From IMG/VR virus record IMGVR_UViG_3300045971_001064, positions 11,256 to 75,255 of that record: a stretch of DNA of 64,000 nucleotides, one strand, 5' to 3'. The DNA comes from a virus. This document shows positions 1 through 17,257 of the stretch, in pieces. Positions within the stretch are counted from its first letter, which is position 1; each line of letters starts with the position of its first letter. Position numbers and translations under genes: made by a program. Below the pieces are notes generated by a model. The model did no database searches. It worked only from the letters and a program-made list of their open reading frames with translations, and was not told where the DNA came from.

Positions 1-106
1 CACTCGGTGGAACGAGAAGAAGGTCCTGCGAGTCATCAACGTAGGGGTCGACGTGCGAAGGTACAGGCCTGTGACGCTTGAAGAACTGCGTGCGGCCGGG
101 CCCTAA
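1..106 (+). CDS. 3' end of a gene running in from the left, resembling a metallophosphoesterase C-terminus
   Basis: Frame 2 reads TRWNEKKVLRVINVGVDVRRYRPVTLEELRAAGP*. INVGVD..Y.PV.LEE is typical of phage calcineurin-like phosphoesterase C-termini. Partial. Confidence 0.45.
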   Translation, partial: TRWNEKKVLRVINVGVDVRRYRPVTLEELRAAGP

Positions 107-111
107 TCTAG
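104..111 (+). promoter_or_regulatory. Putative late promoter TAATCTAG
   Basis: Exact motif 25 nt upstream of ATG 136; recurs before most + strand islands. Confidence 0.6.
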
Positions 112-135
112 GCTGTAGACCTCGGAGGTCCCTCC

Positions 136-714
136 ATGCTGCTGTCTGCTCGAATCCTCAACAACGTCGTGGACGTGAACACCTTCGAGGTGTGCATGAC
201 CCTCGAACTCACGCAGGGCGACGCGCCCACCATCTACTTCGCCCTCATCGACGCCTCGGTCAACAAGCACAAGGACCCGCACGGCCAGCGCTACGTGGCC
301 CCGAGCGACGCGACCCTGAAGGTGGTCTTGCAGGACATCAACACCGCGGTGACGCTGACCAAGTACGCGACACGCCCCTTCCCCGGCGACCAGAGCATCT
401 GGTCCATCTCCTTCAACCCGGTGACCGACGCCACGTCCATGGCAAGCCTGCTCGGCACCTACGCGCTCAAGCTGACCCTGACCGAGCCCGGCACGACCCT
501 CCCGGCCGCGTGGTCTGCCACGACCGTCTACGCCCTCGACGACCTCGTGTCCTACAGCGGGGGGCTGTTCCGCTCGTTCCAGAGCCTCAACCTCAACAAC
601 ACGCCGGGCGAGGTGGCCATCTGGTGGGTGCAGATGAACACCGTCAACACCAAGGTCATCTCGGGCTTCGTCTCGCAGGCCATCTCCATCGCGCGCTCGT
701 CGCCGGAGTTCTAG
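136..714 (+). CDS. Putative virion protein with an inserted CBM5/12-like carbohydrate-binding module
   Basis: Contains AWSATTVYALDDLVSYSGGLFRS...NTPG....WW; high-GC codon usage; lies in a structural island. Confidence 0.55.
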   Translation: MLLSARILNNVVDVNTFEVCMTLELTQGDAPTIYFALIDASVNKHKDPHGQRYVAPSDATLKVVLQDINTAVTLTKYATRPFPGDQSIWSISFNPVTDATSMASLLGTYALKLTLTEPGTTLPAAWSATTVYALDDLVSYSGGLFRSFQSLNLNNTPGEVAIWWVQMNTVNTKVISGFVSQAISIARSSPEF

Positions 715-717
715 GCC

Positions 718-1602
718 ATGGCCATCTTCACCACCCCATCACCTCCGGGCTCGGTCGGCTACGGTGCTGGCGACAAGGTCAAGGTCGGCTCCGAGTACGA
801 CAACGCCGTCGACGCGCAGGCGGCAGTCACCCGCGTCGAGCCGCTCATCACCGTCGACCAGTTGAAGGACCGCTACCTCTTCGGCATCCCGCTCGTGGCG
901 CCTCTGCCCGACCCGCTCACCAAGAAGCGCGCGGTCATGTCGGATGAGATGCTGAGGGACGCCATCGTTCGCGCGGTGAGCACCGTCGAGGCGGCCATCG
1001 GGGCTGGCTTCCACATCATCCCCACCCAGATTCAGCGCCGCCTGCCCTTCGACCGCGCCGAGTACATGTCGCTGGGGTTCTTCCGCATCCCTGAGACACC
1101 CATCCTCCGCGTCTCGGAGTTGAAGGTGAAGACGGCCGACGGCGCCGGAGTCTACGAGGTGCCGTGCAACTGGCTCGACCCGGGCCAGTTCAAGAAGGGC
1201 CAGATTTCCGTCATCCCCCTCATGCCCGCCAGCCTCTACGGCGGCAGCGCACTGCCCGCCTCCTCCGGCGGCGCGGCGTGGATTGCCATCCTCGGCAACA
1301 TGGGCTGGGTGGCGTCGTACTGGACGCTGACGGCCATCGTGGGCTTCGAGGAAGGGCACATCCCGATGCAGGTGAACGAGGCCGTCGGCCTCACCGCCGC
1401 CATCGACGTCCTCGGCAAGCTCGCCGCACTCTACCGCGTCCAGAGCTACAGCACCGGGCTCGACTCGGCCAGCCAGTCCGTCAGCACAGCCGGTGTCGCC
1501 CTGTACGACAACGCCATCCAGCGCATGCAGGATGAGTTGAAGAGCAAGGTGAACCAGTTGAAGGGCCGCTACTACAAGCGCATCTTCGTCGACAACGTCT
1601 AG
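718..1602 (+). CDS. Putative head-tail adaptor / head completion protein
   Basis: N-terminal helix DEMLRDAIVRAVSTVEAAIG, a beta-rich insert, and a C-terminal LDSASQSVS..helix layout typical of myovirus adaptors. Confidence 0.5.
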   Translation: MAIFTTPSPPGSVGYGAGDKVKVGSEYDNAVDAQAAVTRVEPLITVDQLKDRYLFGIPLVAPLPDPLTKKRAVMSDEMLRDAIVRAVSTVEAAIGAGFHIIPTQIQRRLPFDRAEYMSLGFFRIPETPILRVSELKVKTADGAGVYEVPCNWLDPGQFKKGQISVIPLMPASLYGGSALPASSGGAAWIAILGNMGWVASYWTLTAIVGFEEGHIPMQVNEAVGLTAAIDVLGKLAALYRVQSYSTGLDSASQSVSTAGVALYDNAIQRMQDELKSKVNQLKGRYYKRIFVDNV

Positions 1603-1611
1603 AGGCCTCGC

Positions 1612-4600
1612 GTGAGCAACGGCTACTGGGTGTCCAAATGCGGCCTTCGAGTGCCGAAGGCCGACAACCCGCTGCGCAAGCAGTGGGACGCCGCCTATCT
1701 TGCGCGCGTGTCCGACTACTTCGGCGACAAGGACCGCGACCTCGTCCCCGCCCACATCCCGGTCTCGAAGCTCATCGGCGGCCATGGCGCCAGCGCCGAC
1801 AACAGCCGCGGCCAGTTCTACGTCCGCCTCCTGAAGCTCGGTGAGCGCATCCCGCCCATCGTGGTCTCGGAGATGGGTGACGGCAACTACCACGTCCTCG
1901 ACGGCAACCACCGCGTCGCCGCGGCTCAGGTCTCAGGCACCTCGCACCTGCACGCGCTCGTCATCAAGGACAAGAAGGGCGCCAAGCCGCGCTCGACCTC
2001 GCCCCACGTCTTCACCGGCACCAAGGTCAAGAAGCTGGGCGCGAAGCCGATGAAGAAGAGCGAGGGGGCCGACATCCTCGACCTCTCGAAGCACGAGCGC
2101 GAGGTCCCGCCCGAGTTGCCTCAGCGCATCATCCACGCTCTCTGGGCCATCCGCCAGCCGGGCGTGCTGACCGACGAGCTTCGCCAGCCCCAGTACCGCT
2201 CCAACCCCGACCCGTTCGCTGGGCACTGCTTCGTCGCGACCAACGCGCTCTACCACCTCATCGACGGCCCGAAGACCGGCTGGAGCATGAAGTGCATCCA
2301 CAAGGAGCACATGGAGGGGCTGGCGGACGACTCGCACTGGTTCCTCCAGCACAAGAAGACGGGCCACATCATCGACCCGACCGCGGACCAGTTCGACTCG
2401 GTGCCGCCGTACGAGAAGGCCGTGTCGAAGGGCACCAGCCAGACCGGCGAGGACGTGGGCAAGCCGACTCAGCGCGCCGAGAAGGTCATCAAGCGCGCGA
2501 GGGCTGTGATGGCTGGCGAGCCGCTGACCAAGGGCGAAGAGGAGATGGAGAAGGCCGAGTCGAGCCCCGAGTTCGAGTCGTGGTTCTCGGGCTCGAAGGC
2601 TGTCGACCACGAGGGCAAGCCGCTGAAGTTCTTCCACGGCACCTCGAAGGACAGGGACTTCCACACCTTCAAGACGGGCCAGCGTGGCGCGTGGTTCACT
2701 GACGACCCCGAGGAGGCCAGCCTCTACGCGGACCAGAACGACAGCCGCGGGGCCAAGCTCGACCGCTACACGATGCAGTACAAGGAGCACAACACCGCGG
2801 GCCGCGTCATCCCGGTGCACCTGTCCATCAAGAACCCCTACACGCCGAGCTTCGAGGAGTTCAAGGAGATGAAGCACGCCCAGAACTACGCTTGGGCGCA
2901 GCGGAAGCTCTTCGAGAAGGCGAAGCTGGCAGGGCACGACGGCGCCAACATGGGCGCTGGCATCTGGGTCGCCTTCAACCCGAACCAAATCAAGTCGGTC
3001 TTCAACACCAAGCCGACTCAGCACCTCGCCATCCACAAGGCGGAACTCGCCAAGGCCATCGCCCCCGGCACGCAGACGGGCAGCTTCAACAAGGACGTCG
3101 CGCAGGAGTGGGACTACAGCCACCTGCTGCCCCAGCACGCGCGTGACGAGGGCTACCGCATCCGCCTCATCGCCCACAAGTACAAGGGCGGCGCGGGCAA
3201 CAGCGGCCACGTGCAGGTCCTCGCTCGCCAGACCGTCGACGGCCGCACTCGGCATGTTGGTGCGACGACCGGCCACTTCGACGGCGGGACCGTGCTGGTG
3301 CGTGACGCGCTGGTGGAGGAGAAGGACCGTGGCGCCAGCCGACGCAAGGCCGGGAAGAAGCCGCTCGGCGTGGGCACGGCGCTGTACGAGGCGCTCTACG
3401 CGCACGCTCGTGCTCAGCTTGGCTGCACCGCCGCCGAGGGCGACATCCACTCGACCTCCGCCCACAACGTGCACCGCAAGCTGTCGCGGAAGCACGGGCT
3501 CACCTACGAAGGCAAGCCGAACATCAGGCGCACTGGCGGCCTCGGGTACCGCGACATGGACGAGTGGCGTGAGACTCCTGCCTCCGACCACGACGGCAAG
3601 TACGAGGAGTACGGCTACCGGCTGCCCGACGTCCTTGAGCCGAAGCAGACGAACAGCTTCGCCGAGCACAAGCTCCCCGGCTCGCTGCACGCTGAGGGCT
3701 ACCGGCTCAACATCTCCCACAGCCCCGACACGACCATCGGCACCATCCACCGCCACGGCGAGGTCCTCGGCCACATCGAGTTGACGCCCAAGGGCCACGC
3801 CTTCGAGGAGTGGACGGGCGAGAACAACCGGACCGGGCTCAGCGACGCCGTGCTGTCCGTGCTCCGCGGCCACATGGGAGGCGAGGCCGGGCACGACGAG
3901 TGGAATAACGCCTCCAAGCCCGAGCAGATGATGAAGGCTGAGCAGGTCGACCTCACCGACTTGCTCAAGGCCATCCGCCCCACGAAGCAGGTCAAGTTCG
4001 ACAAGCTGCCCGAGCCTCCCACTGGCAGGCGCCCCGACAGCACCCGCCCGCCTCTGCCCGGCTACAAGGCGCAGCCGTACGGCAGCGATAAGAACAACAC
4101 CTTCGACTACAGCCACCTCCTGCCGAAGGAGTTCCAAGGCAAGTACCGCATCTACGTCCACACCACGGACTACACTGGCGAGAAGGGCCACGAGCGTCAG
4201 TCCACGGTCACAGTTCACCGCGCGCCGCAGCCCGGGCCCACGCCCGTCGACATGGCTGCTCGCGAGCCCATCCTGACCGCCTACGGCAACCACATCAAGG
4301 TGCCGACCAACAACATCCGCACCGAGGGGCTGTACAGGCAGGCCATCCAGCCGCACATCATGCCTCTCACGGACCGTCGCGCTGCGGGCATCACCCCGTA
4401 CGCCATGATGGCCCTGCTGGCTCACGCGCGCAACAACCACGGCATCAAGATGCTCGACATCCCTGAGCACACGCCTGCGGCCTCCAACATGATTCGCCGC
4501 TACTTGGGGCTCATCGGCGCCAAGTACGAGGGGCAGCAGGTCCCGAACCCCCAGCACGGCGATGCCCAGTACGACCCCTTCGTCCGCGACCCCGAGCACA

Positions 4601-7600
4601 TGTTCACGGGCCAGCGGGTCATGCTGAAGGCCGAGGACATCGGACCGGCGGACGGCAGCCACATCACCGCCCCGCACCAGAGCTACGTCCACGGCGCCGC
4701 GGCCAAGCCCTTCGGCACCGAGTACGAGGGCGGCAAGAACGTCTGGGGACGCAACCACCCGGGCAAGAGCAACAAGGGTCGCACGCTGATGGTCCAGTTC
4801 TCCTCCGACCTGCTTCAGGGCGGGCGAAAGAAGGATGAGGCGGACCAGTACTACGACAAGCTCTACTCGAAGCGCGAGGGCTACCACCGGGGACAGGATT
4901 TCTGGGAGGTGCCGCAGTGGCAGGCTCACATGGCGCACTCGATGCCGAACGCCGACCACTACACGGTGCGCGACCCCGAGGAGGCCATCAAGTTCATGGG
5001 CGCGGCGGGCTACGACCACGTGGCCTTCTCCGCTCTCGACGTCAACAAGGACTTCGTCCGTCGCCTCGCTGAGGGCGCTCCTGACCAGCACGTCGTCGTC
5101 GGCGGCTACACGGACATGGCGCACTTCGGGGACCTGAAGAACGTCTCCGTGCACCCGAGCATCAAGAGCTTCGTCGAGTCCGAGGGCCACACCTACCAGC
5201 CCGGCTACGACTACCGGCACTTCACCGGGATGAAGACCATCCCGCGCCTGACCCTGAGCGACGGCTGCCGCCACCAGTGCACCTTCTGCTGCGTGCCCAA
5301 GCAGGTCAACGAGAAGACCCGAGAGGAGATTCTCCAGCAGGCCGACAGCTTCGCCACGCACCTGCCCAGCGACCTCATCTACCTGAACGACAAGACCTTC
5401 GGGCAAGCGAAGAACCACGCGATGCTGCCGGAAATCTACCAGCGCATCAAGGCGAAGAACCCCGGCTTCAAGGGCTTCATCATCCAGACGACCGCGGCGC
5501 AGATGAAGCGCTTCACGCCCGAGTACATGAAGCAGGCGGGCATCAAGCACGTGGAGCTTGGCGTGGAGTCGGTCAACGACCCCATCCTCAAGGCCCACAA
5601 GAAGCCCGCCACCGAGGCCATCATCGAGGACGCCGCCAACAAGGTGCGCGCCGCCGGGGCCAGCCTCATCCCGAACATCATGGTCGGCCTGCCGGGCGAG
5701 GACCGCACCACGTACGCGCGGACGCTGGGCTGGCTCCAGAAGCACCGCGACATCATCAGCCACGTGAACGCCTACAACCTCGCCCTCTACGACGACAGCG
5801 AGCTTGGGAAGAAGCTCCAAGTCATCAACGCGGCCGACCGTGACGAGAACGTGCAGCAGAAGTCGTGGCACACCGACCCGCAGGCGCACGCCGACTTCGC
5901 GAAGGCGCTCTTCGGGTTCGCCAACGGCCAGTTGGACCAGCCCATCGGCCACACGCAGTTGGTGAAGTTCGAGGACCTCGTCCTGCTGGACCTCAAGAAG
6001 AACCAGCCCCTCCCCGGCCACGAGCAGGTCGGCGAGCAGCTTGGGTCGAACCCGGGCGGCGTCTACCAGCACAAGAAGACCGGTAAGCAGTACTACGTGA
6101 AGTTCGCGCCGACCAACGACCACGCGCACAACGAGCACCTCGCCTTCCACCTGTACCAAGCGGCTGGCGTCCCGACCCCGAACGTCTCGCTGGTCGAGCA
6201 CCAGAAGGGCAAGCTCGCCACCACCTCCGAGATGCTCCCGGCCGTGGACCTTGAGACCAACGCGGACTACCACAACGCGGCCCAGCACTTCGGGGCTCAT
6301 GCGTGGCTGGCCAACTGGGACGCGCTCGTCTCGGGCAACACGGTGAACGTCGAAGGCGTGCCCCACACCATCGACGCTGGCGGCGCTCTCCAGTACCGCG
6401 CCATGGGCGGGCCCAAGGGCAACCTCTTCGGCACTCAGGTCGGCGAGTTCAGCACGATGCGCGACCTGAAGATGAACGGCGCCGCTCGCGCCTTCCAGCG
6501 CCTGTCCCCTGACGAGGTCGCTGCCTCGGTCGCTCGTGTCGGCAACGTCTCGGACCAGACCATCGACGAGTTGGTGCGCGCCTATGGCCCCGTCGAGAAG
6601 GAGAAGGCGGAGTGGCTGGCCAGCACCCTGAAGGCCCGCAAGCAGCACCTGCTCGCTCAGGCTCACGCTGAGACCGGCATCAAGCCGCTGGGGAAGGCGG
6701 AGGGCCCGCACCCGTACTTCGCCGCGGCTGACGAGGCTCCGACGAACGAGGGCATCGAGGCGGCTGAGCAGGCCTACCACGGCGGCGTGGCCAACCTCGG
6801 CGACCCGGACGCGGCCCACCACATTCAGGGCATGGGCGGGTACTTCGACTACCGCTCGCACTTGGAGAACGCCGCGCACCAGCACCTCGGTGCCGAGTTC
6901 CCGGTGTGGCGCAACATGTCGGTCGAGCAGTACCGCGGCTGGCGCAACGGTGAGAACGTCGGGCCGGTGAGCGTCACCCTGAACCCCGACGTGGCGCGCA
7001 ACTGGAGCAAGCTCGCAGCGGTCAAGGGCGAGCGCTCGGTGGTGCAGTTGAAGGCTACGCCCGCCTCCATCCTGATGCGCGGCCGTCCCGAGGAGCACGA
7101 GTTGGTCATCGACGGCGACCAAGTCGAGCTTCCCATGGCCAAGGCTCAGGCCTTCATGAAGAGCCCCGCCTTCCGACACATCGCCTCAGGCAAGGTCGTG
7201 GCGACGCCCGTCTTCCACGACACCGCGCACTTGGGTCGCGTGGCGAAGCTGAAGTTCGACAAGGAGAACGACGAGTACCCCGAGGCATACACGCACTGGG
7301 AGGCGGGCTTCCTCGACCACGCTGGCAACTTCTTCAACCGCGAGGACGCGCTCAGGGCCGTCAGCACTTCCAAGACCCCCTCCTCGACCATCAGCGCCGC
7401 GATGCAGGCCGACGGCGGCTTGGAGTCGACGCAGTACGCCGCGGGCCAGAGCAAGGGCATCTTCAAGGCTGAGGTCGACCGCCACGACCCTGTCTCCTGC
7501 GTCGTCATGGTGCAGGACGCGCTGGGCCGCACTCTCTGGGGCAAGCGCAAGGACGGCAAGTACACGATGCCCGCCGGTCACGCCAACCAGAACGAGTTGC

Positions 7601-9627
7601 CTCCCGACTGCGCCAAGCGCGAGTTGATGGAGGAGGCGGGCCTGAAGGCTGAGGCGCTCTGGCTCATCGGCTCCGCCAACGGCAACGAGGGCCCTGTCCA
7701 CGTCTACCACGCCGTCAGCCACGGCAAGGCGTGCACCGACCTCGACCCGGACCGCGAGATGGCTTCGTGGGAGTGGGTCGACTGCCTTCGCGGCCCGCCT
7801 CCGCACATCACCGCCAACCTCGCCCACAACCCCAACGCCGTCTACGCGCTCATGGGCTGGGAGCAGCCGCTGGCGAAGGGCGCCATGCAGCGCGTCGCCC
7901 CGATGAAGCACCCGCCGAACAAGAACCCGTCGTACCCTGACCCGAGGATGCTGCACAACTGGCAGGAGGGCGCGGAAGACGTCCCTTCCGACGGCCGCAA
8001 CAGCATCAAGCCCATGGCTGGCCCAGTGTTGGCGCGCGGCCTTCACAGGCTGCACGGTCACACTCAGGTCCGACGCAGCGCTGAGACCGGCGAGCGCGAG
8101 TTCCTCCTGCACCGCGGCGTGGGCGCTCTGGAGTACAGCCTCGGTGACCGAGGGCCCGGCAGCTTCGCTCCCAACGAACTGTCTTCGTGGACGCCTCACC
8201 GCGATGTCGCTGAGCGGTTCTCTCGTAACGTAGTGACGGCTTGGATTCCCGAGGGGCACATCCATGCTCTGGGCTCCATGAACCCGTGGAGCAATGACTC
8301 GGACCTGAAGAGGGAGAGCGAGGTCATCGTCCGCCCGGGGCAGTTCGAGCGGCACCAGCCTGCGATGGCCAAGTCCGAGGACGACGAGCAGGAAGCTCCT
8401 CCTCGTCCGCCGCCCGACCGCAGCTACGAGCGCCGCTTCCCTCTGCCTGAGTACTCGCACTTCGGGCCGAAGAACATCCACAAGCAGTGGAAGAACACCC
8501 AGTACCTCGACGAGCCCAGCAGGGAGAACCCGGGCGAGCGCAAGAGCATCTGGGACCTCGACCAGCGCGACATCGACCCAATCCGCGAGATGGACTTCAA
8601 GAGGAACGCTCCGCACCTGAGCACCATCTCGAAGGCCGTCCACAAGATGGTGGGCGGGACCAAGGCGTACTCCTCCGACCGGATTCACGACTTCATCGTC
8701 GACTCCGACCTGCCTTCGCAGAGTGAGCACCCCGACTTCCCCGGCACGTTCACTTCTCAGGCCTTCCACAGCGACACCGGCAACCACATCGCGAAGGAGG
8801 ACGCCAAGCGGCTCGCGTACCTCTTCGGCGACGACGAGGCGGTGAGCCACAAGGACTCCGTCCCCTCCTTCAAGATGGCTCTGCACGAGATGATGCACGG
8901 CGCGTCCGGCCAGTACAAGTACGACACGCACGACCGCCGCTTCATCGAGGAGGCGACGACCGAGGTGCTGGCTCAGCACTACATGCCGCAGGTCCTCAAG
9001 CACTCGCACGACATCGACCTCAGCTACTACGGCGGCGGCCATGAGAACCCTCTGGTCCGCATCGACTCGAAGACCGGCGAGACCTACCTCGACCGGCCCG
9101 TGTCCTACCACGGCTGGGTGGACAAGTTCGCGAAGGTCGTGGCTCACATCGAAGGACTCGACGAGCCCGCCAAGCTCGACGAGACCGGGCACTACAGCGG
9201 CGACGAGCACGACGAGAAGGAGCGCAAGCTCAGCCACATGGTCGCGTGGTACGCCCTCAAGATGAAGCAGATGGGGCATCACGAGTCCTCGCGCTCGACT
9301 TGGTTGCAGCAGATGTGGATTCACAGGAAGCTGGGCGTCAGCCCGCCCGCGGTCGCCGTCTCGCATCCGTACTACGGCATCCGCAATCGTCTCCACGACC
9401 TCGCCTTCGACCCCATCGGGAAGCACTACGTCTTCAATGCGGAGACCAACAAGCACGAGGAGGTCGACCCGCCGCGCGGCATCTTCCACCACTCGCGCGA
9501 GGTCACCCGGGACACCCTAAAGGCCATCACCGAAGAGCTTGCCAAGACGCACCGGCTGAGCTATGTTAGGGTGAGCGACCCCGGCTACGAGGCCGCCAAC
9601 CCGGAGAAGGACCCTTATGCCCCGTAA
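1612..9627 (+). CDS. Giant polyvalent polyprotein (2671 aa): ParB-like, papain-like, ART, 2-3 GNAT-like, B12/radical SAM, HipA/PI3-4K-like kinase, ART, unknown, Nudix, ART, zincin
   Basis: Motifs in order: VLDGNHR; GHC..SHW..IDPTADQF; FHGT..GAWFT..VHL.IKNP..AFNPNQIKS; GVGTALY; CxxxCxxC with VELGVES and GLPGED; YYVK..NEH..NWD..IDAG; WRN..SVT..EEHELV; Nudix box GHANQNE...RELMEEAGL; HRG..SSW..ESEVIV; HEMMH..EE. GTG start with GAGG upstream. Confidence 0.8.
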   Translation: MSNGYWVSKCGLRVPKADNPLRKQWDAAYLARVSDYFGDKDRDLVPAHIPVSKLIGGHGASADNSRGQFYVRLLKLGERIPPIVVSEMGDGNYHVLDGNHRVAAAQVSGTSHLHALVIKDKKGAKPRSTSPHVFTGTKVKKLGAKPMKKSEGADILDLSKHEREVPPELPQRIIHALWAIRQPGVLTDELRQPQYRSNPDPFAGHCFVATNALYHLIDGPKTGWSMKCIHKEHMEGLADDSHWFLQHKKTGHIIDPTADQFDSVPPYEKAVSKGTSQTGEDVGKPTQRAEKVIKRARAVMAGEPLTKGEEEMEKAESSPEFESWFSGSKAVDHEGKPLKFFHGTSKDRDFHTFKTGQRGAWFTDDPEEASLYADQNDSRGAKLDRYTMQYKEHNTAGRVIPVHLSIKNPYTPSFEEFKEMKHAQNYAWAQRKLFEKAKLAGHDGANMGAGIWVAFNPNQIKSVFNTKPTQHLAIHKAELAKAIAPGTQTGSFNKDVAQEWDYSHLLPQHARDEGYRIRLIAHKYKGGAGNSGHVQVLARQTVDGRTRHVGATTGHFDGGTVLVRDALVEEKDRGASRRKAGKKPLGVGTALYEALYAHARAQLGCTAAEGDIHSTSAHNVHRKLSRKHGLTYEGKPNIRRTGGLGYRDMDEWRETPASDHDGKYEEYGYRLPDVLEPKQTNSFAEHKLPGSLHAEGYRLNISHSPDTTIGTIHRHGEVLGHIELTPKGHAFEEWTGENNRTGLSDAVLSVLRGHMGGEAGHDEWNNASKPEQMMKAEQVDLTDLLKAIRPTKQVKFDKLPEPPTGRRPDSTRPPLPGYKAQPYGSDKNNTFDYSHLLPKEFQGKYRIYVHTTDYTGEKGHERQSTVTVHRAPQPGPTPVDMAAREPILTAYGNHIKVPTNNIRTEGLYRQAIQPHIMPLTDRRAAGITPYAMMALLAHARNNHGIKMLDIPEHTPAASNMIRRYLGLIGAKYEGQQVPNPQHGDAQYDPFVRDPEHMFTGQRVMLKAEDIGPADGSHITAPHQSYVHGAAAKPFGTEYEGGKNVWGRNHPGKSNKGRTLMVQFSSDLLQGGRKKDEADQYYDKLYSKREGYHRGQDFWEVPQWQAHMAHSMPNADHYTVRDPEEAIKFMGAAGYDHVAFSALDVNKDFVRRLAEGAPDQHVVVGGYTDMAHFGDLKNVSVHPSIKSFVESEGHTYQPGYDYRHFTGMKTIPRLTLSDGCRHQCTFCCVPKQVNEKTREEILQQADSFATHLPSDLIYLNDKTFGQAKNHAMLPEIYQRIKAKNPGFKGFIIQTTAAQMKRFTPEYMKQAGIKHVELGVESVNDPILKAHKKPATEAIIEDAANKVRAAGASLIPNIMVGLPGEDRTTYARTLGWLQKHRDIISHVNAYNLALYDDSELGKKLQVINAADRDENVQQKSWHTDPQAHADFAKALFGFANGQLDQPIGHTQLVKFEDLVLLDLKKNQPLPGHEQVGEQLGSNPGGVYQHKKTGKQYYVKFAPTNDHAHNEHLAFHLYQAAGVPTPNVSLVEHQKGKLATTSEMLPAVDLETNADYHNAAQHFGAHAWLANWDALVSGNTVNVEGVPHTIDAGGALQYRAMGGPKGNLFGTQVGEFSTMRDLKMNGAARAFQRLSPDEVAASVARVGNVSDQTIDELVRAYGPVEKEKAEWLASTLKARKQHLLAQAHAETGIKPLGKAEGPHPYFAAADEAPTNEGIEAAEQAYHGGVANLGDPDAAHHIQGMGGYFDYRSHLENAAHQHLGAEFPVWRNMSVEQYRGWRNGENVGPVSVTLNPDVARNWSKLAAVKGERSVVQLKATPASILMRGRPEEHELVIDGDQVELPMAKAQAFMKSPAFRHIASGKVVATPVFHDTAHLGRVAKLKFDKENDEYPEAYTHWEAGFLDHAGNFFNREDALRAVSTSKTPSSTISAAMQADGGLESTQYAAGQSKGIFKAEVDRHDPVSCVVMVQDALGRTLWGKRKDGKYTMPAGHANQNELPPDCAKRELMEEAGLKAEALWLIGSANGNEGPVHVYHAVSHGKACTDLDPDREMASWEWVDCLRGPPPHITANLAHNPNAVYALMGWEQPLAKGAMQRVAPMKHPPNKNPSYPDPRMLHNWQEGAEDVPSDGRNSIKPMAGPVLARGLHRLHGHTQVRRSAETGEREFLLHRGVGALEYSLGDRGPGSFAPNELSSWTPHRDVAERFSRNVVTAWIPEGHIHALGSMNPWSNDSDLKRESEVIVRPGQFERHQPAMAKSEDDEQEAPPRPPPDRSYERRFPLPEYSHFGPKNIHKQWKNTQYLDEPSRENPGERKSIWDLDQRDIDPIREMDFKRNAPHLSTISKAVHKMVGGTKAYSSDRIHDFIVDSDLPSQSEHPDFPGTFTSQAFHSDTGNHIAKEDAKRLAYLFGDDEAVSHKDSVPSFKMALHEMMHGASGQYKYDTHDRRFIEEATTEVLAQHYMPQVLKHSHDIDLSYYGGGHENPLVRIDSKTGETYLDRPVSYHGWVDKFAKVVAHIEGLDEPAKLDETGHYSGDEHDEKERKLSHMVAWYALKMKQMGHHESSRSTWLQQMWIHRKLGVSPPAVAVSHPYYGIRNRLHDLAFDPIGKHYVFNAETNKHEEVDPPRGIFHHSREVTRDTLKAITEELAKTHRLSYVRVSDPGYEAANPEKDPYAP

Positions 9628-9847
9628 GGACTACCGCACGCTCATCGCCGCCGAAGCGGTCGTCATGGAGCCGCGCTCGACGGCCGAGCAGGTCAAGGCT
9701 GCAATCGCCTCGGTCGACGCACTCGGGGACCGCGAGCAGTCGGTCGCCATCCGCCAGACCCTCACGCACGAGGCCCACCACCGCGCAGACGCCCCGGGGA
9801 ACGACGCAGAGGGCTCGGACGAGGCCTCGGAGGGGTCCGGCCACTAG
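9617..9847 (+). CDS. Hypothetical protein
   Basis: Overlaps the upstream stop; plausible codon usage. Confidence 0.45.
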   Translation: MPRKDYRTLIAAEAVVMEPRSTAEQVKAAIASVDALGDREQSVAIRQTLTHEAHHRADAPGNDAEGSDEASEGSGH

Positions 9848-9893
9848 AATCGCTCCACGGGGCACGCAGGAAGTCTGGCGCGGCTTGGCGAGG

Positions 9894-9904
9894 CGTGCTA
9901 GGAT
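9894..9904 (+). promoter_or_regulatory. Extended -10 promoter CGTGC-TAGGAT
   Basis: Same CGTGCTA core as eight - strand promoters. Confidence 0.45.
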
Positions 9905-10151
9905 GAAGGGAACAGGCAGTGAACCAGCGGAAGGAGACCGACCCTGCGAGGGAGTCCGTCAAAGCCCTCTACCACCAAACCTGCTTAAACCCACGTTCTT
10001 TCAGACCAATCCTTGAATCGCAGCACGGTCCACTGACTCTGGCCGATACAAAGAGTCGAGGAATGGCGGCCACTTACGACCGCCCCCGGGCCACCGGGTG
10101 CTGTGAACAGGACGGGGGCGTGCGCCGCCCGCGGTAGTCATCGAGGAAGTC

Positions 10152-10421
10152 ATGGTCAAGCTGGTCATCAAGCTGCTGGACTCAGGCAAGAGCGAGACGT
10201 TCATCGGGTCCGAGAAGGACGCCGAGCAGCGCCTGCGCGTCCTGTTCCCCCGCGAGACCGAGCACACCGGCCGCCTCATGTCGTGCATCTCGGCCATCAA
10301 CGCCGAGGGCTTCGGCGAGGTCGACGTGGCTCCGTACATGCCGCCTCCCGAGCGCAACCTGCTGCCCAAGGACTACGACGCCGACGTGCACCGCGAAGAC
10401 CCGTGGCCGCGCTCCGAGTAG
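10152..10421 (+). CDS. Hypothetical protein
   Basis: SD GAGGA; typical codon usage. Confidence 0.65.
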   Translation: MVKLVIKLLDSGKSETFIGSEKDAEQRLRVLFPRETEHTGRLMSCISAINAEGFGEVDVAPYMPPPERNLLPKDYDADVHREDPWPRSE

Positions 10422-10448
10422 CAGCAATCTGTAGAGCGTGCCCGCCGG

Positions 10449-10456
10449 TAATCTAG
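10449..10456 (+). promoter_or_regulatory. Putative late promoter TAATCTAG
   Basis: Exact motif; ATG 10463 follows within 8 nt of the hexamer. Confidence 0.6.
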
Positions 10457-10462
10457 GTGGGG

Positions 10463-13400
10463 ATGGCCCCTCCCAAGAGCAACGTCAACCCCGCGGGCTC
10501 TGGCCCCTTCTTCCACGCGAAGGGGCACGAGGTGTCGAAGGGCCACAAGCTGGCCAACGGCGGCAACTCGTGGGACTGCCAGTCGTGCGGTCAGGACTAC
10601 GACCCCGACGAAGTGTTCGCCGAGCACGAACTTCCTGAGGACGACGGGCTCGGCGGCGAGACCGTGAAGGTCACCAAGCCCTCGGTCACTCCGTCGCTCT
10701 CACCTATGCAGGCTGCTCAGAAGGTGAGCGCGCTGCTCGATGGCACGCCCGACGTCAAGCCGTCCGGCGTCGTGCAGATGGAGGCGCCTGCTGGCTTGGC
10801 CAACATGGGCGAGCGGCTGGTGGGGCAGAACAAGACGGCGAAGCAGAACCGCCGCTGCTGGCAAGGGCCCGGCAGCGAAGCCCTGCACGCCCAGTTCAAC
10901 CACCGCATCCACACGCCCCTCGCCAACGTCTCGCTGGAGGGTGAGCACTTCGACCACCATCACGGCGCGTGGCTCAAGATTCAGGGCAACTCGCTCTACG
11001 TCGCCAACAAGCTCATCGGCGACTCGCGCGTCAGCCATGACACGCCCCTCAGTCACATCGACCTGTACAGCGCCTACAAGAGCACCCCGCACGCTCCGGC
11101 GTCGACGTTCCTGAAGTACCTCGTGCACCGCATCAACCACGTCGAGGACTACGAGGACCCGACCAAGGGGCACAAGCTCGACGTCGCCTTCAAGGAGTTG
11201 GTCCAGCGCGGCGGCGCGGCCGAGAAGAACGGCCACATCTCCATCCAAGACCTGCACGACTGGACCGACAGGCACGCCACCACCGTGGTGCCGCAGTTGC
11301 TGGCCGAGAAGCAGCGCATGCAGATGGACGTGGCGCGCGGCATCGGGCTCAACGTCCGCAGCATCAACGGCGAGCCCCACGTGGCGCTCACCCGCGGGCT
11401 CAACTCGGACATCATGCAGGACGAGCACTCGCTCTCCTCGCATGCTGACACGGTCGACACCGGCTTCGGCTCCGACATGCACCACTCGTGGGTGCCGCTG
11501 AAGGACCTCTGGTTCCTGTACGACCTCGACCGCACCGCGCGCTCCCACATCCACATGGGGCCCGAGGACGAGGCGCTCATCTCGAACACGGGCCCGCGCT
11601 ACGAGGCCTCGGCGCACGACGTCAAGAAGAACCGCATCAAGCGCTGGCCGAGCCAGCACCCCTACGTCTACGACGACATGTCGGACGAGAGCCTCGCCAA
11701 GCTGCTGAGCGGCGCGTCGTCCAACCCTGACGCCGACAACGAACTGAAGTACGCCATCAAGGACCACAAGAACGCTGGCCCGGCCGTCTGGGCGTTCGAG
11801 CGCAGGCGGTTCGAGGATGCCGGGATGACGCCTGAACTGGGTCGCCCGCCCATCGGCGCCTTCGGCTACAAGTGGTACCCTCGCGAAGAGGTGATGAAGG
11901 CCGCTGCGCTCTCGAAGGTCAGCGTCGACGGCCCCGCGTGGTTCCGCAACCAGAACCTCAACGCACAGGACTTGGAGACGTTGTCGGCGAAGCTCTTCGA
12001 CGGCGAGCCGAAGAAGAACAGCTACTCGGGCCTCGTCGATGAGGGGGCTCAGCAACTGCTCACGCACCCCGCGATGAACTCGCACGTGCTGGAGCGCATC
12101 TGGAGGGCGCAGCACGGCTCGCCGTGGGCTCCGACGCTGCTGGAGTCGCCTCTGGCCACCCACCAGATGCGCGAGGACGCCATCGAGCAGGCGAAGTTCA
12201 TGTCGGGAGCCGGGCTCCTCGCGCCCCTGAAGCTCATGCGGGCAGTGACGAGCAACCCTCACCACACCGAAGAGCAGGCGCAGAAGGTCTTCGACTGGGC
12301 CGTGCAGAACGGGATGTTCAGGGACAACGAGGACCTGCACAACGCCATCGCTCGCGCGAAGCTCCCGGCCGAGACGGTGCTGAAGCTGTACGACCGCCGC
12401 GACGAGTTGGGTGAAGAGCAGGCCGTCAGGAACTCCTCCCGCGGCTTCGAGCCCGGCGGGCACCTCACGCCGGATGAGCGGCGAGAGTACAATACGCTCG
12501 GGGCCATCAAGAACGACTTCATGCAGGTGCACCCCGACGCCAACGTCGTTGCCCGGGTCGCGGCGTCCAAGCCCGGCCGAGTCTCGCCGCTCACGCTCCT
12601 CCAGCGCCTGAGTTGCAACGGCGGGACCTTGGAGCCCGTGTTGCAGGCTGCCCTCATCACCGAGTGCGAGCACCTCTACGGCCACGGCACCCCTCACCTC
12701 GGCTCGACTCGCCAGCCGGTGGTGGAGTTCTTGGAGAAGCTGGCCGGGGCGAAGGGGCTCTCGCAGGAGAGCATCAACTACCTCGCGCACTACAAGGACA
12801 ACTTGGTGCGTGAGGTCCTCGGCCTCAACAAGAGCATCGCGCCCGAGCAGCTTCGCGCCGCCTTCCCCAAGGGCGTCCAGTTCCCCGAGCGCTCGAACAT
12901 CCACTACGAGACCGGCACCCACACCGGCACCATCGCCGAGGAGCTTGGGCAGGCCTACTGGCGCCGCAAGCAGTACGCTGAGAAGAAGGCCAAGCTCCAC
13001 TTCATCAAGCCCCTGCCCGCGGACCTCGCCAAGTCGAGCGAGGAGGACCTGTGGCGCGCGGCTGCACGGCACTGGCTGGCCGACCAGACGACCAAGGGGT
13101 TCTACGCCGTCATCCACAAGGACGTCGCCGAGGGCGCTCTCCGGGACAAGGCCATCGAGCCCCAGTTCACGGACGAGTTGCTGGACGGCGAGGCCGTGTT
13201 CGGTCGCCCTGCCACGCCCGAGAACCTCATCAAGCTCCAGAAGCTGGCTGGCCCGGACGAGGTGGTGGCCTACTTCGAGACACCTGTCGCTCCTCGTGAG
13301 CACACCGACGGCAGCCTGTACTGGACCGAGCGCGTGCCCTGCGAGACCATCCAGTTGGCGGACGTGGGCGACGAGCCGCTCGCCAAGATGCACACGCCCC

Positions 13401-16400
13401 TCACCTTCCCGAAGCTGGGCGTCGAGGACGATAGGCGCGAGACGAAGGTCGTCACCACTCCTCGTGAGCGCCAGACCTTCAACCGCGCCGCGGGCAACAT
13501 GTTTGCCCGTGAGAGCTACGTCACCGACGACAGGAGCCAAGGCGACATCTACGAGAGGTTCCGCGAGAACCCGGCGATGAAGCAGGCCACCATCGACCGC
13601 GACACCGCGACCATCGCCAAGGACAGGCACGTCGGCGCCCAGTACACAGGCAACGCTGGCGTCGGCCACCCGGGCCACGGCGCCCCGCGCGACGAGCGCG
13701 ACCTCATCCCCGACGCGGGCACCGGGGCGTCTGCCACGTCGGCCGCCTTCGCGCCTTCGTCTGCTCCTCGTCGGAAGCTCAACCCGGCTGAGGCTGCCGC
13801 GTGGAGCGACCCGACCTACCTGCCGAGCACGCTGCATCACGAAGACCTCCACCGCATCTTCGCGCGGGTCCAGCACAAGCACGGCGAGCGCGGCCGGGAG
13901 ATGTTGGCCCGCAACCTCGTCCACGTGCTGCCTCAGGACCTCCAGTCGGCGGTGATGAAGCACCTGTTCTACGCGCAGCCGAAGAACATGAACGAGCCCT
14001 TCCCCGAGGAAGAGGCCATCACCGAGTTGACGTCGTACCTGAACAGCCCTCAGATGCGCGACGGCTTCCACAAGAAGCAGCAGCACTCGTCCGAGCAGCA
14101 GAAGGCCTTCCACGACAAGATGAAGCGCGCCTACCGGCTCCTGCTGGCGGTCTCGCCCACGGTCGACGAGGGCTGGCTGCACCACGAGAAGCCGTGGATG
14201 AAGCGTGGCGTGGCCATGCGCAAGTTCACCGAGCCCCAGTCCGGCACCGGGCTGTCGGCCGCCGAGGCCCACGAGGTCTTCCGCGGCTCGAACAAGCTGA
14301 CGAAGTCGCGCCCAGACCTGCTCGACGCCAACTCCTTCGCGTTCGCCTTCGAGACCGACCCGACCTTGATGGACAGCATCGACGCGCGCCACTGGGAGTT
14401 GGAGTTGCGCAAGATGGGGAGCTTGAACGAGTACCCTACGGCCGCCTCGAACTTCATCAAGGAGTTCCAGAAGCGGACCGTGCACAACGGGTTCGACGAG
14501 CGCCTCGGCCGCTACCACAACACCACGGGCGACAACACCGAGGGCACTCTCATCGTCATGTCTCCGCGCATCAAGGCATGGAGCGACAAGCCGACCGTGG
14601 GCCTCGACTGGATTCAGGCGCTGAAGCAGGGTAACGGCGACGGGCACCGGTCCATGAAGTTCATCACCGACCTCGCCGACAAGCATGGCGTCAGCGTCGA
14701 GTTGCACGTGGGCAGTGACGGCGGCGCCAAGACGTCGCCCAAGTCGATGCTCCACAAGTTCTACAAGAAGCACGGCTTCGTGAAGCGCGGCAAGTTCGAG
14801 AAGGACATCCTCGTCAGGCACGCGACCACGCACGCTGTCACCGAGCCGGGCGAGACGTTGAAGCTGGGCTCGACGATGCGGACCATCAAGAAGGCTGAGG
14901 AGGAGTTCGACCTCGCCAAGATGGCCGTGGTCCACGACGACCCCGAGAGCCCGATGACGGTCTACCGCGTCGAGGACCCCGAGACCAACCTCGGCCCCTA
15001 CACCGACCCCGACGAACCGCCCTCGAAGGTGGAGCCTCCGCGCGGCCAGACCCTCCGCGACCGGACCACCGGCTACCGCCGCGCCAAGACGCACCCGAAC
15101 CCCGAGCCCGAGACCGACTTCGATGCGCGCGACTACCGGGACTTCGAGGCCCAGTACAAGAAGGTGCGCTTCGGCTTCATGTCCCGGCAGGACGCCTACA
15201 ACTGGTTCGGCCGCGACCTCTCCGGCGCTGTCCGGGAGCAGGAGCACCCGCCTTCCTACAAGGTGGTGAAGGTGCTGGCGCGCAAGGTGTGGAAGTCGCG
15301 CACGGGCAAGCAGGTCTTCTTCGTGCCGCACAAGCCAGTCAAGAAGAGCGAGCCCGAGGGCGACGTGCTGGAGAAGATGTCGGTCTTCCACGACGACCCG
15401 AAGAATCCGCGCAAGGTCTACCGCGTCGAGGATTATCATGGCCGCGGCCCGTACCAGAACAAGTACGACGTGATGCCGGACAAGGAGCGCGACCCCCGGT
15501 GGGCCGCGAAGCGCCCGAACCCCGGTCGCGACTTCCCGGCCAAGGAGTGGTCGCAGAACCCCGAGGGCGGCGTCTTCGGCTTCGCTCGCCCAGAGGATGC
15601 TGTCGAGTGGTTTGGTCCGCATCGCCTCGCTCGCCTTAAGGCCACAGGCTTCGAGCTTCGTGAAGTGCTGGCTCACAAGGCCTACCTCTCGAACTCCGGT
15701 AGGCAGGTGGTGTTCCAGCGTTCTCCTCCTCCGCCATCTGGCGCGCGACCAGCCAACCCGGTAGTCCCTGTACCGAAGGTCAAGGGGCCGTGGGTTCCAC
15801 ATCCTGAGGCCGCTGAGCACGCGGTGACGGCTCTGCGTAACGCCCACGACCAGCACCTCGACACGCTCTCGGCGGCCTTCGGCAAGCTGCCCAAGCAGAA
15901 GCAGGTCAAGGTCGAAGGGTTGGAGGACTCATTCCAGCAGGCTCTCTCGGAGAAGGATGCCGAGTCGCTGAAGGACCACCCCTTCGTCCAGTGGGCTCGC
16001 ACCGTGGTTCCTGAGTTCGGTCAGTCCATGCAGAAGAGCGAGGACTTCGTGTTGCCCACCGAGAGCATCCTGAAGCCCGGCGAGGAGTCGGCTGCCAAGC
16101 TCATGCTCGGCCACCGCAAGGACCACGAGACCGCTCTCAAGGCCGCTCGCTTCCTCACCGGCCGCAAGGAGCCCGTCGACGAGAACCTGTTCACGCTGGC
16201 CCTCAACGTCTTCGACGGCGACTTCGAGCGGGCCGCTCTGTTCGCCGTGGGGATGACGGACTCCGAGGCCAACCTGAAGGCCTTGCGCGCCGCCCTCAAG
16301 CTGGGTGAGTTCTCGCAGGAGACCACCGAGTTGTCGAAGAACGAGCCGGGCACGCCTCACATCGAGAGCGTGAACCCGGGCGCTCCTGACGCGACGCCCA

Positions 16401-17242
16401 CCGCCGACGAGGTGAAGCGCGGCGTGACGGCCGGTCTGGTGCAGCCGCTCAAGCTCGGCGGGAAGCACTCGAAGGGCTCCATGGCTGTGCGCGACCCGAA
16501 GACGGGCAACACTTGGTTGCTCAAGCCCGGCGCCGGGAAGGCTTCGCCCGCGGCTGGCGTGCGTGATGGAGCTTCGTCGCAGTCTGCGCGCGAAGCCGCC
16601 TTCTGGCACTGCATGGACCGAACGGGTCTCGGCAACTACGGCCCCAAGTGCGACCTGCTCGAAGTGAATGGCGGACAGGTTGCGGCGATGAAGCTGCTGG
16701 GCCCGTCTTGGAAAAGCGCCGACGAACAGAACCGCAAGGTCGACGGTTGGGCACGTGAGATTCTCCAGCCCTACCTCGACCGCGGCGACGTCCACCGTAT
16801 CGCGGCTTTGTTCTGGGTCTTGGGCGAAAGTGACGCCCATGGTCAGAACGTCCTCGTGCACGCAGAGTCAATCGCTCTCATCGACCACGGCTCCTCGTTT
16901 GCTGGTCCGAACTTCAACCCCGGCCGCGACAGCAAGTCGTTTACCCCCTACATCCTGCGCGTGTTCGCTCCGGCGGGCTACACCAAGAAGAAGCCCGAGG
17001 ACCGCATCTCCGGTCTGCCCGTGTTGATGCCTGCTGGCGACATCGCGCTGAGGAAGTGGGTGCACAGCATCGACCCCGGGCTCATCTCCGAGACCATGGG
17101 CTCGCACGGCATCGGGCAGGTGGAGCAGGAGGCTGTGCTGGAACGACTCAACGACCTCCAGCACCACGAGGGCCCGAGCCTGAGCCGCTACGTCAACGAA
17201 CTCTGGGCGGGTGTGGTTCTTCCTCCGCACTTGAGGAGCTAG
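10463..17242 (+). CDS. Second giant polyvalent polyprotein (~2260 aa): ART-like, helical repeats, unknown, zincin, GNAT-like, two tandem VYRVE domains, PI3/4K-like kinase
   Basis: Motifs LTRG..LSS..EDEALI; HEDLH..EEEAITE; GNGDG..ADKHGV..HKFYKKHGF; duplicated VYRVE..GPY..FGF..WF; WLLKP..REAA..DAHGQN..IDHG. Confidence 0.75.
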   Translation: MAPPKSNVNPAGSGPFFHAKGHEVSKGHKLANGGNSWDCQSCGQDYDPDEVFAEHELPEDDGLGGETVKVTKPSVTPSLSPMQAAQKVSALLDGTPDVKPSGVVQMEAPAGLANMGERLVGQNKTAKQNRRCWQGPGSEALHAQFNHRIHTPLANVSLEGEHFDHHHGAWLKIQGNSLYVANKLIGDSRVSHDTPLSHIDLYSAYKSTPHAPASTFLKYLVHRINHVEDYEDPTKGHKLDVAFKELVQRGGAAEKNGHISIQDLHDWTDRHATTVVPQLLAEKQRMQMDVARGIGLNVRSINGEPHVALTRGLNSDIMQDEHSLSSHADTVDTGFGSDMHHSWVPLKDLWFLYDLDRTARSHIHMGPEDEALISNTGPRYEASAHDVKKNRIKRWPSQHPYVYDDMSDESLAKLLSGASSNPDADNELKYAIKDHKNAGPAVWAFERRRFEDAGMTPELGRPPIGAFGYKWYPREEVMKAAALSKVSVDGPAWFRNQNLNAQDLETLSAKLFDGEPKKNSYSGLVDEGAQQLLTHPAMNSHVLERIWRAQHGSPWAPTLLESPLATHQMREDAIEQAKFMSGAGLLAPLKLMRAVTSNPHHTEEQAQKVFDWAVQNGMFRDNEDLHNAIARAKLPAETVLKLYDRRDELGEEQAVRNSSRGFEPGGHLTPDERREYNTLGAIKNDFMQVHPDANVVARVAASKPGRVSPLTLLQRLSCNGGTLEPVLQAALITECEHLYGHGTPHLGSTRQPVVEFLEKLAGAKGLSQESINYLAHYKDNLVREVLGLNKSIAPEQLRAAFPKGVQFPERSNIHYETGTHTGTIAEELGQAYWRRKQYAEKKAKLHFIKPLPADLAKSSEEDLWRAAARHWLADQTTKGFYAVIHKDVAEGALRDKAIEPQFTDELLDGEAVFGRPATPENLIKLQKLAGPDEVVAYFETPVAPREHTDGSLYWTERVPCETIQLADVGDEPLAKMHTPLTFPKLGVEDDRRETKVVTTPRERQTFNRAAGNMFARESYVTDDRSQGDIYERFRENPAMKQATIDRDTATIAKDRHVGAQYTGNAGVGHPGHGAPRDERDLIPDAGTGASATSAAFAPSSAPRRKLNPAEAAAWSDPTYLPSTLHHEDLHRIFARVQHKHGERGREMLARNLVHVLPQDLQSAVMKHLFYAQPKNMNEPFPEEEAITELTSYLNSPQMRDGFHKKQQHSSEQQKAFHDKMKRAYRLLLAVSPTVDEGWLHHEKPWMKRGVAMRKFTEPQSGTGLSAAEAHEVFRGSNKLTKSRPDLLDANSFAFAFETDPTLMDSIDARHWELELRKMGSLNEYPTAASNFIKEFQKRTVHNGFDERLGRYHNTTGDNTEGTLIVMSPRIKAWSDKPTVGLDWIQALKQGNGDGHRSMKFITDLADKHGVSVELHVGSDGGAKTSPKSMLHKFYKKHGFVKRGKFEKDILVRHATTHAVTEPGETLKLGSTMRTIKKAEEEFDLAKMAVVHDDPESPMTVYRVEDPETNLGPYTDPDEPPSKVEPPRGQTLRDRTTGYRRAKTHPNPEPETDFDARDYRDFEAQYKKVRFGFMSRQDAYNWFGRDLSGAVREQEHPPSYKVVKVLARKVWKSRTGKQVFFVPHKPVKKSEPEGDVLEKMSVFHDDPKNPRKVYRVEDYHGRGPYQNKYDVMPDKERDPRWAAKRPNPGRDFPAKEWSQNPEGGVFGFARPEDAVEWFGPHRLARLKATGFELREVLAHKAYLSNSGRQVVFQRSPPPPSGARPANPVVPVPKVKGPWVPHPEAAEHAVTALRNAHDQHLDTLSAAFGKLPKQKQVKVEGLEDSFQQALSEKDAESLKDHPFVQWARTVVPEFGQSMQKSEDFVLPTESILKPGEESAAKLMLGHRKDHETALKAARFLTGRKEPVDENLFTLALNVFDGDFERAALFAVGMTDSEANLKALRAALKLGEFSQETTELSKNEPGTPHIESVNPGAPDATPTADEVKRGVTAGLVQPLKLGGKHSKGSMAVRDPKTGNTWLLKPGAGKASPAAGVRDGASSQSAREAAFWHCMDRTGLGNYGPKCDLLEVNGGQVAAMKLLGPSWKSADEQNRKVDGWAREILQPYLDRGDVHRIAALFWVLGESDAHGQNVLVHAESIALIDHGSSFAGPNFNPGRDSKSFTPYILRVFAPAGYTKKKPEDRISGLPVLMPAGDIALRKWVHSIDPGLISETMGSHGIGQVEQEAVLERLNDLQHHEGPSLSRYVNELWAGVVLPPHLRS

Positions 17243-17245
17243 ACG

Positions 17246-17253: not shown

Positions 17254-17257
17254 AGGC

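Follow-up and report, generated by a model that had tools for sequence, protein, structure and literature searches.

The polyvalent proteins of phages, as described by Iyer, Burroughs, Anand, de Souza and Aravind in 2017 (PMC5512222), are giant chains of unrelated enzymes that, according to the main text of that paper, are predicted to be packaged and then injected along with the DNA; the repertoire set out there comprises ADP-ribosylation, phosphorylation, acetylation, nucleotidylation, proteolysis and nucleic-acid enzymes, and head-packaged, ejected phage enzymes are summarised in the same text. The subject of the present analysis is a viral stretch of 64,000 nucleotides (positions 11,256 to 75,255 of IMG/VR record IMGVR_UViG_3300045971_001064, referred to below as the window), in which the giant open reading frame (ORF) P0001 contains a radical S-adenosylmethionine (SAM) module. 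Radical SAM, iron-sulfur (Fe-S) and cobalamin enzymes are not mentioned in the main text of PMC5512222, which deals with 131 domain types, and it is in this respect that P0001 differs from the published proteins. In the literature searched, no paper brings polyvalent or virion proteins into a relevant connection with radical SAM or Fe-S enzymes; the one on N4 refers to radical SAM in passing only, for an HExxH fold. The module described here extends the polyvalent proteins by a new and widespread enzymatic unit and, in addition, represents an orphan subfamily of radical SAM enzymes.

P0001 (1612-9627, + strand) is a single open frame of 2671 amino acids (aa) with a third-position G+C content (GC3) of 0.92. 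A Pfam search identifies three domains in this protein, all with scores over the cut-offs: ART-PolyVal (PF18760; residues 332-469, 2605-3018 on the + strand; 61 bits against a cut-off of 31.2), Radical_SAM (PF04055) and NUDIX (PF00293; residues 1961-2057, 7492-7782 on the + strand; 41.7 bits against 21.1, with an additional match to phrog_1198); a ParB-like stretch is detected by a match to PHROGs. The ART-PolyVal domain is taken here to be the marker domain of polyvalent proteins. P0001 combines at least two domains of disparate activity in one phage polypeptide and includes a domain family that was defined on such proteins (PF18760), so that, judging by its domain content, it is a polyvalent protein by definition. 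The proposal of a preliminary description of this DNA that a radical SAM enzyme is embedded in a polyprotein is borne out, in that the module lies inside this one multi-domain ORF. The likeness to the published polyvalent proteins (PMC5512222) extends from the giant chain of unrelated enzymes, with ART-PolyVal and NUDIX domains and ParB-like and peptidase-like parts, to the location of the gene near phage head genes and the shuffling of domains among relatives. A fusion to MuF or portal proteins was not found in this phage.

The radical SAM module (residues 1010-1448, 4639-5955 on the + strand) is a conserved, shuffled unit that is common to all 201 carriers, whereas its flanks are not. In a BLAST comparison of the whole P0001 with these carriers, similarity is universal only at residues ~1000-1450 and sparse elsewhere; this block coincides with the borders, 4636-5960 (residues 1009-1449), that the preliminary description had assigned to the enzyme. 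With the Pfam Radical_SAM profile, residues 1215-1374 score 61.7 bits (cut-off 29.5; E 1.3e-16), and a six-frame search of the genome also recovers the domain over the cut-off, with 58.3 bits. AlphaFold2 (AF2), run on residues 1010-1448 with 65 relatives, gives a model of very high confidence (predicted local distance difference test, pLDDT, 94.9; predicted TM-score, pTM, 0.91), and this model, together with the profile score, is in keeping with the earlier notion of a complete enzyme. The model starts with an extension of ~45 residues that is present in embedded forms only, followed by alternating strands and helices at model residues 49-171, with five strands in a Rossmann-like arrangement, then by the barrel and a C-terminal helical part. 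In P0001, these regions correspond to a predicted Rossmann-like N-domain (residues ~1055-1194, 4774-5193, + strand), delineated by the model and by structural alignment and containing FSALDVN and VGGY; to the radical SAM core barrel (residues 1215-1374, 5254-5733, + strand); and to the C-terminal part (residues 1375-1448, 5734-5955, + strand) with the ISHxN, DxxEN and KS motifs and the final helix. The CxxxCxxC motif, CRHQCTFC (residues 1219-1226, 5266-5289 on the + strand), which provides the predicted [4Fe-4S] ligands C1219, C1223 and C1226, is intact and lies exactly where it was originally placed. The barrel of the model aligns with many solved radical SAM enzymes (Z 14-22).

Conservation is best seen in an alignment of 65 module relatives with 39-94% identity (A1), all of which match the Radical_SAM profile. 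This alignment contains 42 invariant columns, namely the three cluster cysteines and 39 others; the invariant positions include DKT-Q-N after strand 2, QT(T), E-G-E, K-P, (IP)N-G-E and S-H-N, so that the motifs DKTFGQ, QTT, ExGxE and IPN are among them. The strings VAFSA, VVVGGY, LNDKTF, VELGVES and IMVGLPGED, by which the enzyme had first been recognised, are all present and fall in columns that are invariant or nearly so, and two conserved segments, ELGVES and IPNIMVGLPGE, align with the matching strands of RimO. Residues S131, G155 and G156 of the module are conserved as well. Cysteines are invariant or nearly so at only three positions of A1, C210, C214 and C217 in module numbering, which are those of CxxxCxxC; given that no other cysteine is conserved, an auxiliary cluster is not expected. 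Thus, by every sequence criterion, the module is a complete, catalytically competent radical SAM enzyme, and the parts predicted to bind the [4Fe-4S] cluster on C1219/C1223/C1226 and to bind SAM are all present in the sequence and in the model.

Degenerate domains do occur in polyvalent proteins, and the module could in principle be such a relic, a radical SAM fold that serves as bulk or scaffold in head cargo. This explanation is hardly credible: each of 13 loci inspected retains the cluster cysteines, which do not vary among the 65 aligned sequences either; the SAM-side motifs stay unchanged at overall identities of 39-94%; and the module evolves slower than all other carrier domains. In the comparison with the nearest relative, P0003, the module is 92% identical, whereas the other shared segments are at 40-73%, and it is the best-conserved segment in seven further relatives too. 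No sign of functional loss is seen in the module sequence, and the possibility, raised in the preliminary description, that the closest homologues are inactive derivatives is contradicted by the 42 invariant columns, cysteines included, and by the fact that the module is the most conserved part of its carriers.

Structural comparisons with the model yield full-length matches only to enzymes of the same two-domain layout. The best match, by both Z and TM-score, is AprD4 (PDB 6fd2; Z 21.9, root-mean-square deviation 3.4, 357 residues aligned, 14% identity), followed by MgmA (Z 21.2), CysS (20.0), MiaB (19.9), RimO (19.1), OxsB (18.7) and TsrM (18.0); because the Z values of AprD4, MgmA, CysS and MiaB lie within 2 units, the top structures are too close to rank. 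Model residues 46-435 align with AprD4, TsrM, OxsB, CysS and MiaB (Z 18-22), and model residues 46-185 align with the N-domains of TsrM, OxsB, CysS, TokK and MgmA, which identifies this part as a Rossmann-like fold. At the sequence level, a search of the PDB with the family profile retrieves RimO as the best match (E 1.4e-10), then AprD4 and MgmA. The NCBIfam models that are matched by most members of the family are PhpK (65/65, best E 2e-23), the ladderane-lipid B12 family and HpnJ (63-65/65 for these three) and RimO, but all of them score ~50 bits against cut-offs of 250-600, and every curated subfamily cut-off is failed. The combination of weak subfamily matches with these structural matches indicates that the module, as far as sequence and model comparison go, is an orphan subfamily within the clade that unites the cobalamin-type enzymes and the methylthiotransferases.

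Within this clade, the closest solved relatives by sequence are methylthiotransferases, and MiaB, MtaB and RimO can be aligned with the model over the full length. The best NCBIfam match of P0001 itself is TIGR00089, and thus a MiaB/RimO-type enzyme that would act on host tRNA or on ribosomal protein uS12 has to be weighed. However, the module lacks the three auxiliary-cluster cysteines in the N-domain; neither the Pfam search nor the AF2 model, which ends in a helix, contains a TRAM-like beta domain; the TIGR00089 score is 50.2 bits against a cut-off of 251; and the cobalamin-type families, PhpK in particular, match at least as well across the 65 members. Given the missing N-domain cysteines, this explanation is close to refuted, and it is considered very improbable; assignment of the module to the methylthiotransferases was rejected for the absence of these cysteines and of TRAM together with the failed TIGR00089 cut-off.

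The preliminary description had likened the protein to class B radical SAM enzymes and had proposed a B12-binding-like N-terminal region. The likeness in architecture holds in the model, where the two-domain layout corresponds to that of the class B structures: MgmA, CysS, TokK, TsrM and OxsB, as well as the PhpK and HpnJ families, share it with the module (Z 18-21). The B12-binding proposal stands at the level of the fold (Z 18-22) and fails at the level of sequence. P0001 has no match to PF02310 (B12-binding) even at E<=10, only two of the 65 relatives match this profile, both below the threshold (best E 4.4e-5), and all subfamily scores are far below the cut-offs. The homologue from Aliirhizobium, which carries the NCBI name 'B12-binding domain-containing radical SAM protein', matches PF02310 at E 3.5e-5 with 24.1 bits against a cut-off of 32.1. 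In the ESM Atlas, the module is placed beside B12-binding clusters, and FSxL (in FSALDVN) and GG (in VGGY) presumably occupy the positions of the SxL and GG motifs of B12-binding domains. Since the fold is also that of MiaB and of AprD4, which works without cobalamin, it is on its own no proof of cobalamin use.

The similarity to AprD4 leads to a different type of explanation, namely, that the module is a cobalamin-free, AprD4-like enzyme acting on a sugar-, nucleoside- or inositol-like compound. Such an enzyme would produce or remove a metabolite or signal instead of modifying a macromolecule, and it would fit either delivery route considered below. Apart from the highest Z, over 357 aligned residues, and the highest TM-score, AprD4 and the module share a Rossmann-like N-domain joined to a radical SAM barrel and have no auxiliary cluster. 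They differ in that the identity is only 14%, the AprD4 family cut-off is failed and the aminoglycoside context is absent here: the AprD4 model NF033070 gives 15.8 bits against a cut-off of 500 and matches 12 of the 65 members at E<=1e-5. The lead of AprD4 is further blunted by the close values of MgmA, CysS and MiaB. In P0001, the module is followed by a kinase-like region (residues ~1470-1700, window positions 6000-6700) with a glycine-rich loop, then a lysine and a D-x-G-like motif, which could fit a small-molecule substrate; this region has no Pfam match, no PDB sequence match and no similarity to DUF7178, and it is not conserved among the 201 carriers.

The rare cellular homologues are found in small-molecule contexts. 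A motif scan of 185,579 prokaryotic species yields only six loci. In two of these, the module is part of giant ORFs on contigs of metagenome-assembled genomes (MAGs), a 4229-aa carrier binned with Polyangiaceae (37% G+C) and a 1702-aa carrier in a Dehalococcoidia MAG (43% G+C); a G+C content of 37-43% looks discordant with the bins, and these are probably phage contigs binned with bacteria. The other four loci encode stand-alone forms, in two Saccharimonadales MAGs, in a Neptuniibacter MAG and in Aliirhizobium smilacinae; another 400 genomes of the Aliirhizobium class and another 400 of the Saccharimonadales phylum yielded no additional copy. In A. smilacinae (locus L014, 7404-14869), the gene lies between an amino-acid-type ATP-binding cassette transporter and a downstream run of genes for a class II aldolase, an aldehyde dehydrogenase, a PduO-type cobalamin adenosyltransferase and a nucleoside phosphorylase, which may be a catabolic or 5'-deoxyadenosine-disposal operon. 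In one Saccharimonadales locus (L015, 8960-12120), Pfam identifies an APH-family kinase, the radical SAM member and an inositol-monophosphatase-family protein. The ORFs that flank the gene in the other Saccharimonadales locus (L013, 8989-12169) match those of L015 in size and position. These neighbourhoods weakly point to small-molecule metabolism or to 5'-deoxyadenosine disposal; they are few, the homologues are only 30-37% identical, and part of the signal could come from 5'-deoxyadenosine disposal. On balance, a small-molecule substrate is regarded as a real but minority possibility.

When 1.84 billion cluster representatives (50% identity clusters) are searched exhaustively with HMMER, 306 clusters match the module at E<=1e-30. 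Among the best 150 cluster representatives, 128 are longer than 1000 aa, the longest having 5531 aa. In all seven IMG/VR loci, the module lies inside ORFs of 1514-2876 aa with CxxxCxxC intact, on contigs with 49-60% G+C, one of which is a complete 76-kb phage with terminal repeats. The carriers contain ART-PolyVal, NUDIX, GNAT, ParB, His_Phos_1, InPase and DUF3293 domains in changing combinations, and PF18823, PF18857, PF18838 and PF18834 are also represented; within these variable flanks, the boundaries of the module are sharp. About 80 stand-alone forms of 370-470 aa are also found and, on long contigs, sit among many small, non-structural phage-type genes, a setting in line with activity in the infected cell. 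In a tree of 108 sequences, with a midpoint root only and with rows picked by similarity to two queries, 36 embedded forms and one stand-alone form make up one clade (Shimodaira-Hasegawa-like approximate likelihood ratio test, SH-aLRT, 95) nested in the stand-alone diversity, a topology that suggests one main capture of the module into polyvalent proteins. Judging by these searches, the family is distinct, almost phage-only and apparently undescribed.

One uncharacterised domain, DUF7178 (PF23802), travels with the family: it forms the C-terminal end of 85 of the 201 carriers and adjoins stand-alone genes (L012, 3435-4079, and the contig of P0233), and no paper naming it was found. It is absent from P0001, from P0002 and from the 98.7-kb contig to which the window belongs, for which reason DUF7178 was rejected as a partner domain of the present module.

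This contig, an IMG/VR virus sequence with an estimated completeness of ~60%, carries a major head protein, a thymidylate synthase and a phosphoesterase immediately 5' of the window, and in the window (66% G+C) a tail-fibre-like protein (715-1602), P0001, a second giant ORF of 2261 aa 3' of P0001 (10457-17242) and a tail sheath (45877-48330); endonuclease VII, a sigma factor, DNA ligase and RNA ligase are encoded in this phage genome as well. The tail sheath shares 44.6% identity with its counterpart in Myxococcus phage Mx1, the sole close relative in culture, and the gene order is shared with Mx1 and with a 166.8-kb relative; in all three, the gene lies downstream of the head genes. The equivalent place in Mx1 is occupied by a 1479-aa 'NUDIX hydrolase' and a 'kinase'; the carrier protein is present in Mx1, and the radical SAM module is absent. 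Neither a megablast search with window positions 1-20000 nor a tblastn search with the module finds a match among 50,697 phage records, and thus no cultured carrier is present there. Among metagenome runs, the full stretch is found only in one pond sample, probably the source itself, and the others contain small shares of it. Several further observations were made in these genomes: a 537-aa protein in the window (33454-35067) weakly resembles, below the thresholds, the minimal CRISPR polymerase (mCpol) domain and DUF5661; near the head genes, a 'nucleotide cyclase' is annotated in Mx1 and a GGDEF gene is present in a relative; Mx1 has an unusually large putative prohead protease (L016, 545-4264) of 1240 aa; and in a relative (L020, 1-2477) the corresponding gene run opens with a likewise unusually large protein, of 1590 aa, that weakly matches PI3/PI4-kinase.

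The preliminary description had also suggested a low-oxygen host for a phage that encodes an oxygen-sensitive enzyme, and this suggestion finds no support: the closest cultured relative infects Myxococcus, an obligate aerobe, and the pond sample reveals no anoxic niche. Aerobes, too, have functioning radical SAM enzymes, among them MiaB, RimO, LipA and BioB. The G+C content of the carrier contigs ranges from 37 to 66%, so there are probably many hosts.

Two kinds of short motifs bear on the expression and processing of P0001. The heptamer TAATCTA occurs nine times in the window (104, 10449, 17246, 28945, 38572, 43016, 45874, 55007 and 60905), all on the + strand, compared to 0.22 copies expected, and right before gene starts. 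The first copy (104-110, + strand) lies ahead of the gene run 112-714, 715-1602 and 1612-9627, the last being P0001, and those at 10449 and 45874 precede the second giant ORF and the tail sheath gene, respectively. This placement suggests that TAATCTA is a candidate late-gene signal and that P0001 is co-regulated with structural genes. The second motif, [LIMVFAP]-x-K-[ASGN]-E, is found ten times in P0001 (residues 147, 305, 312, 474, 773, 1004, 1693, 1803, 1950 and 2252), compared to 1.2 expected, and falls at domain borders. The copy MLKAE (residues 1004-1008, 4621-4635 on the + strand), a candidate protease site, ends one residue before the module, and an imperfect copy, LVKFE (residues 1450-1454, 5959-5973 on the + strand), begins two residues after it. 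In close relatives, the module has the motif on either side, with M-x-K-[A/S]-E within ~40 residues downstream, and distant carriers do not keep it around the module, so it looks like a clade-specific protease site. The motif resembles those involved in the prohead-protease processing of T4 internal proteins. T4 Alt, the T4 internal proteins and the virion RNA polymerase of N4 are made late, trimmed by the prohead protease and act before phage gene expression. The lifestyle proposed here is like theirs, that of late-made, packaged and ejected enzymes, with the difference that no oxygen-labile metal cluster is needed there. From the polyvalent architecture, the location near the head genes, TAATCTA and the motifs at domain borders, we infer that P0001 would be packaged in the virion and injected.

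The overall reading that is favoured, with moderate confidence, is that P0001 carries an intact, almost phage-only radical SAM module that is made late, cleaved, packaged and ejected to act on a host or phage molecule. Under this reading, the polyprotein would be made late, alongside the structural genes, and cutting at hydrophobic-x-K-[A/S/G]-E would release single enzymes or, alternatively, a piece consisting of the radical SAM enzyme and the kinase-like region. The polyprotein would be packaged in the head and ejected unfolded along with the DNA, after which the enzyme would refold, be supplied with a fresh cluster by the Isc/Suf machinery of the host and draw electrons from host flavodoxin or ferredoxin. 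Extrapolating from the superfamily, the reduced cluster would cleave SAM to give a 5'-deoxyadenosyl radical that abstracts a hydrogen from the substrate, and the Rossmann-like N-domain would serve to hold cobalamin, like that of the class B enzymes, or else, like that of AprD4, a portion of the substrate; the resulting modification of a host or phage molecule would favour infection. With regard to the substrate, radical modification of a host protein or RNA (e.g., C-methylation) is very tentatively placed before a small nucleoside- or sugar-like molecule, and the latter before phage DNA. In the most specific and rather unlikely form of injection, the apoprotein, possibly of a cobalamin-using enzyme, would be packaged as a radical weapon that is re-metallated by the Fe-S machinery of the victim and irreversibly modifies, e.g., by C-methylation, a component of host defence, transcription or translation.

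Several considerations weigh against packaging and ejection. The virion location of P0001 is itself a prediction, and an oxygen-labile cluster could not survive in the free virion or while the protein threads unfolded through the tail. Once injected, the enzyme would accordingly depend on slow re-metallation, a poor fit with the action 'immediately after injection' that was postulated in the preliminary description. No gene for flavodoxin, CobT or a second radical SAM protein is found in the 98.7 kb, which represent ~60% of the genome; Mx1 does without the module, which is therefore dispensable for this phage type; and the gene context gives no clue to the substrate, in that the flanking domains vary and DUF7178 is missing here. 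The same cluster loss in air or during tail passage, with the attendant need for re-metallation, is the reason why another explanation stays serious, even if it is judged somewhat unlikely: the enzyme could work late in the cell in which it is made, on phage DNA, virion proteins or the polyprotein itself, packaging being incidental. Such an enzyme would avoid the re-metallation problem; sharing an upstream motif with the structural genes, the protein would be present when DNA and capsids are made; and the stand-alone members of the family are ordinary phage genes expressed in the infected cell. On the other side, the companions of the module, namely ART-PolyVal, NUDIX and the kinase-like and peptidase-like parts, are typical of host-directed polyvalent effectors as presented in the main text of PMC5512222; no DNA-modification gene set (glycosylase, transferase or base synthesis) is seen adjoining P0001 in the window; and no conserved partner domain hints at a substrate in cis.

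The radical SAM module adds a chemically different class of activity to the polyvalent repertoire. It is more conserved than its neighbours and recurs in hundreds of clusters, which implies that it has a target in bacteria that is probably important. For enzymologists, it represents a sizeable orphan subfamily, and, given the confident model and the clear domain boundaries (~445 aa), the module is ready for expression. These findings raise the question of whether an oxygen-labile metalloenzyme is delivered via the virion or whether late, 'cargo-like' polyproteins are also active in the producing cell. If the enzyme does prove to be an injected weapon, virion cargo can include Fe-S enzymes, and the strategy would be common to hundreds of uncultured phages.

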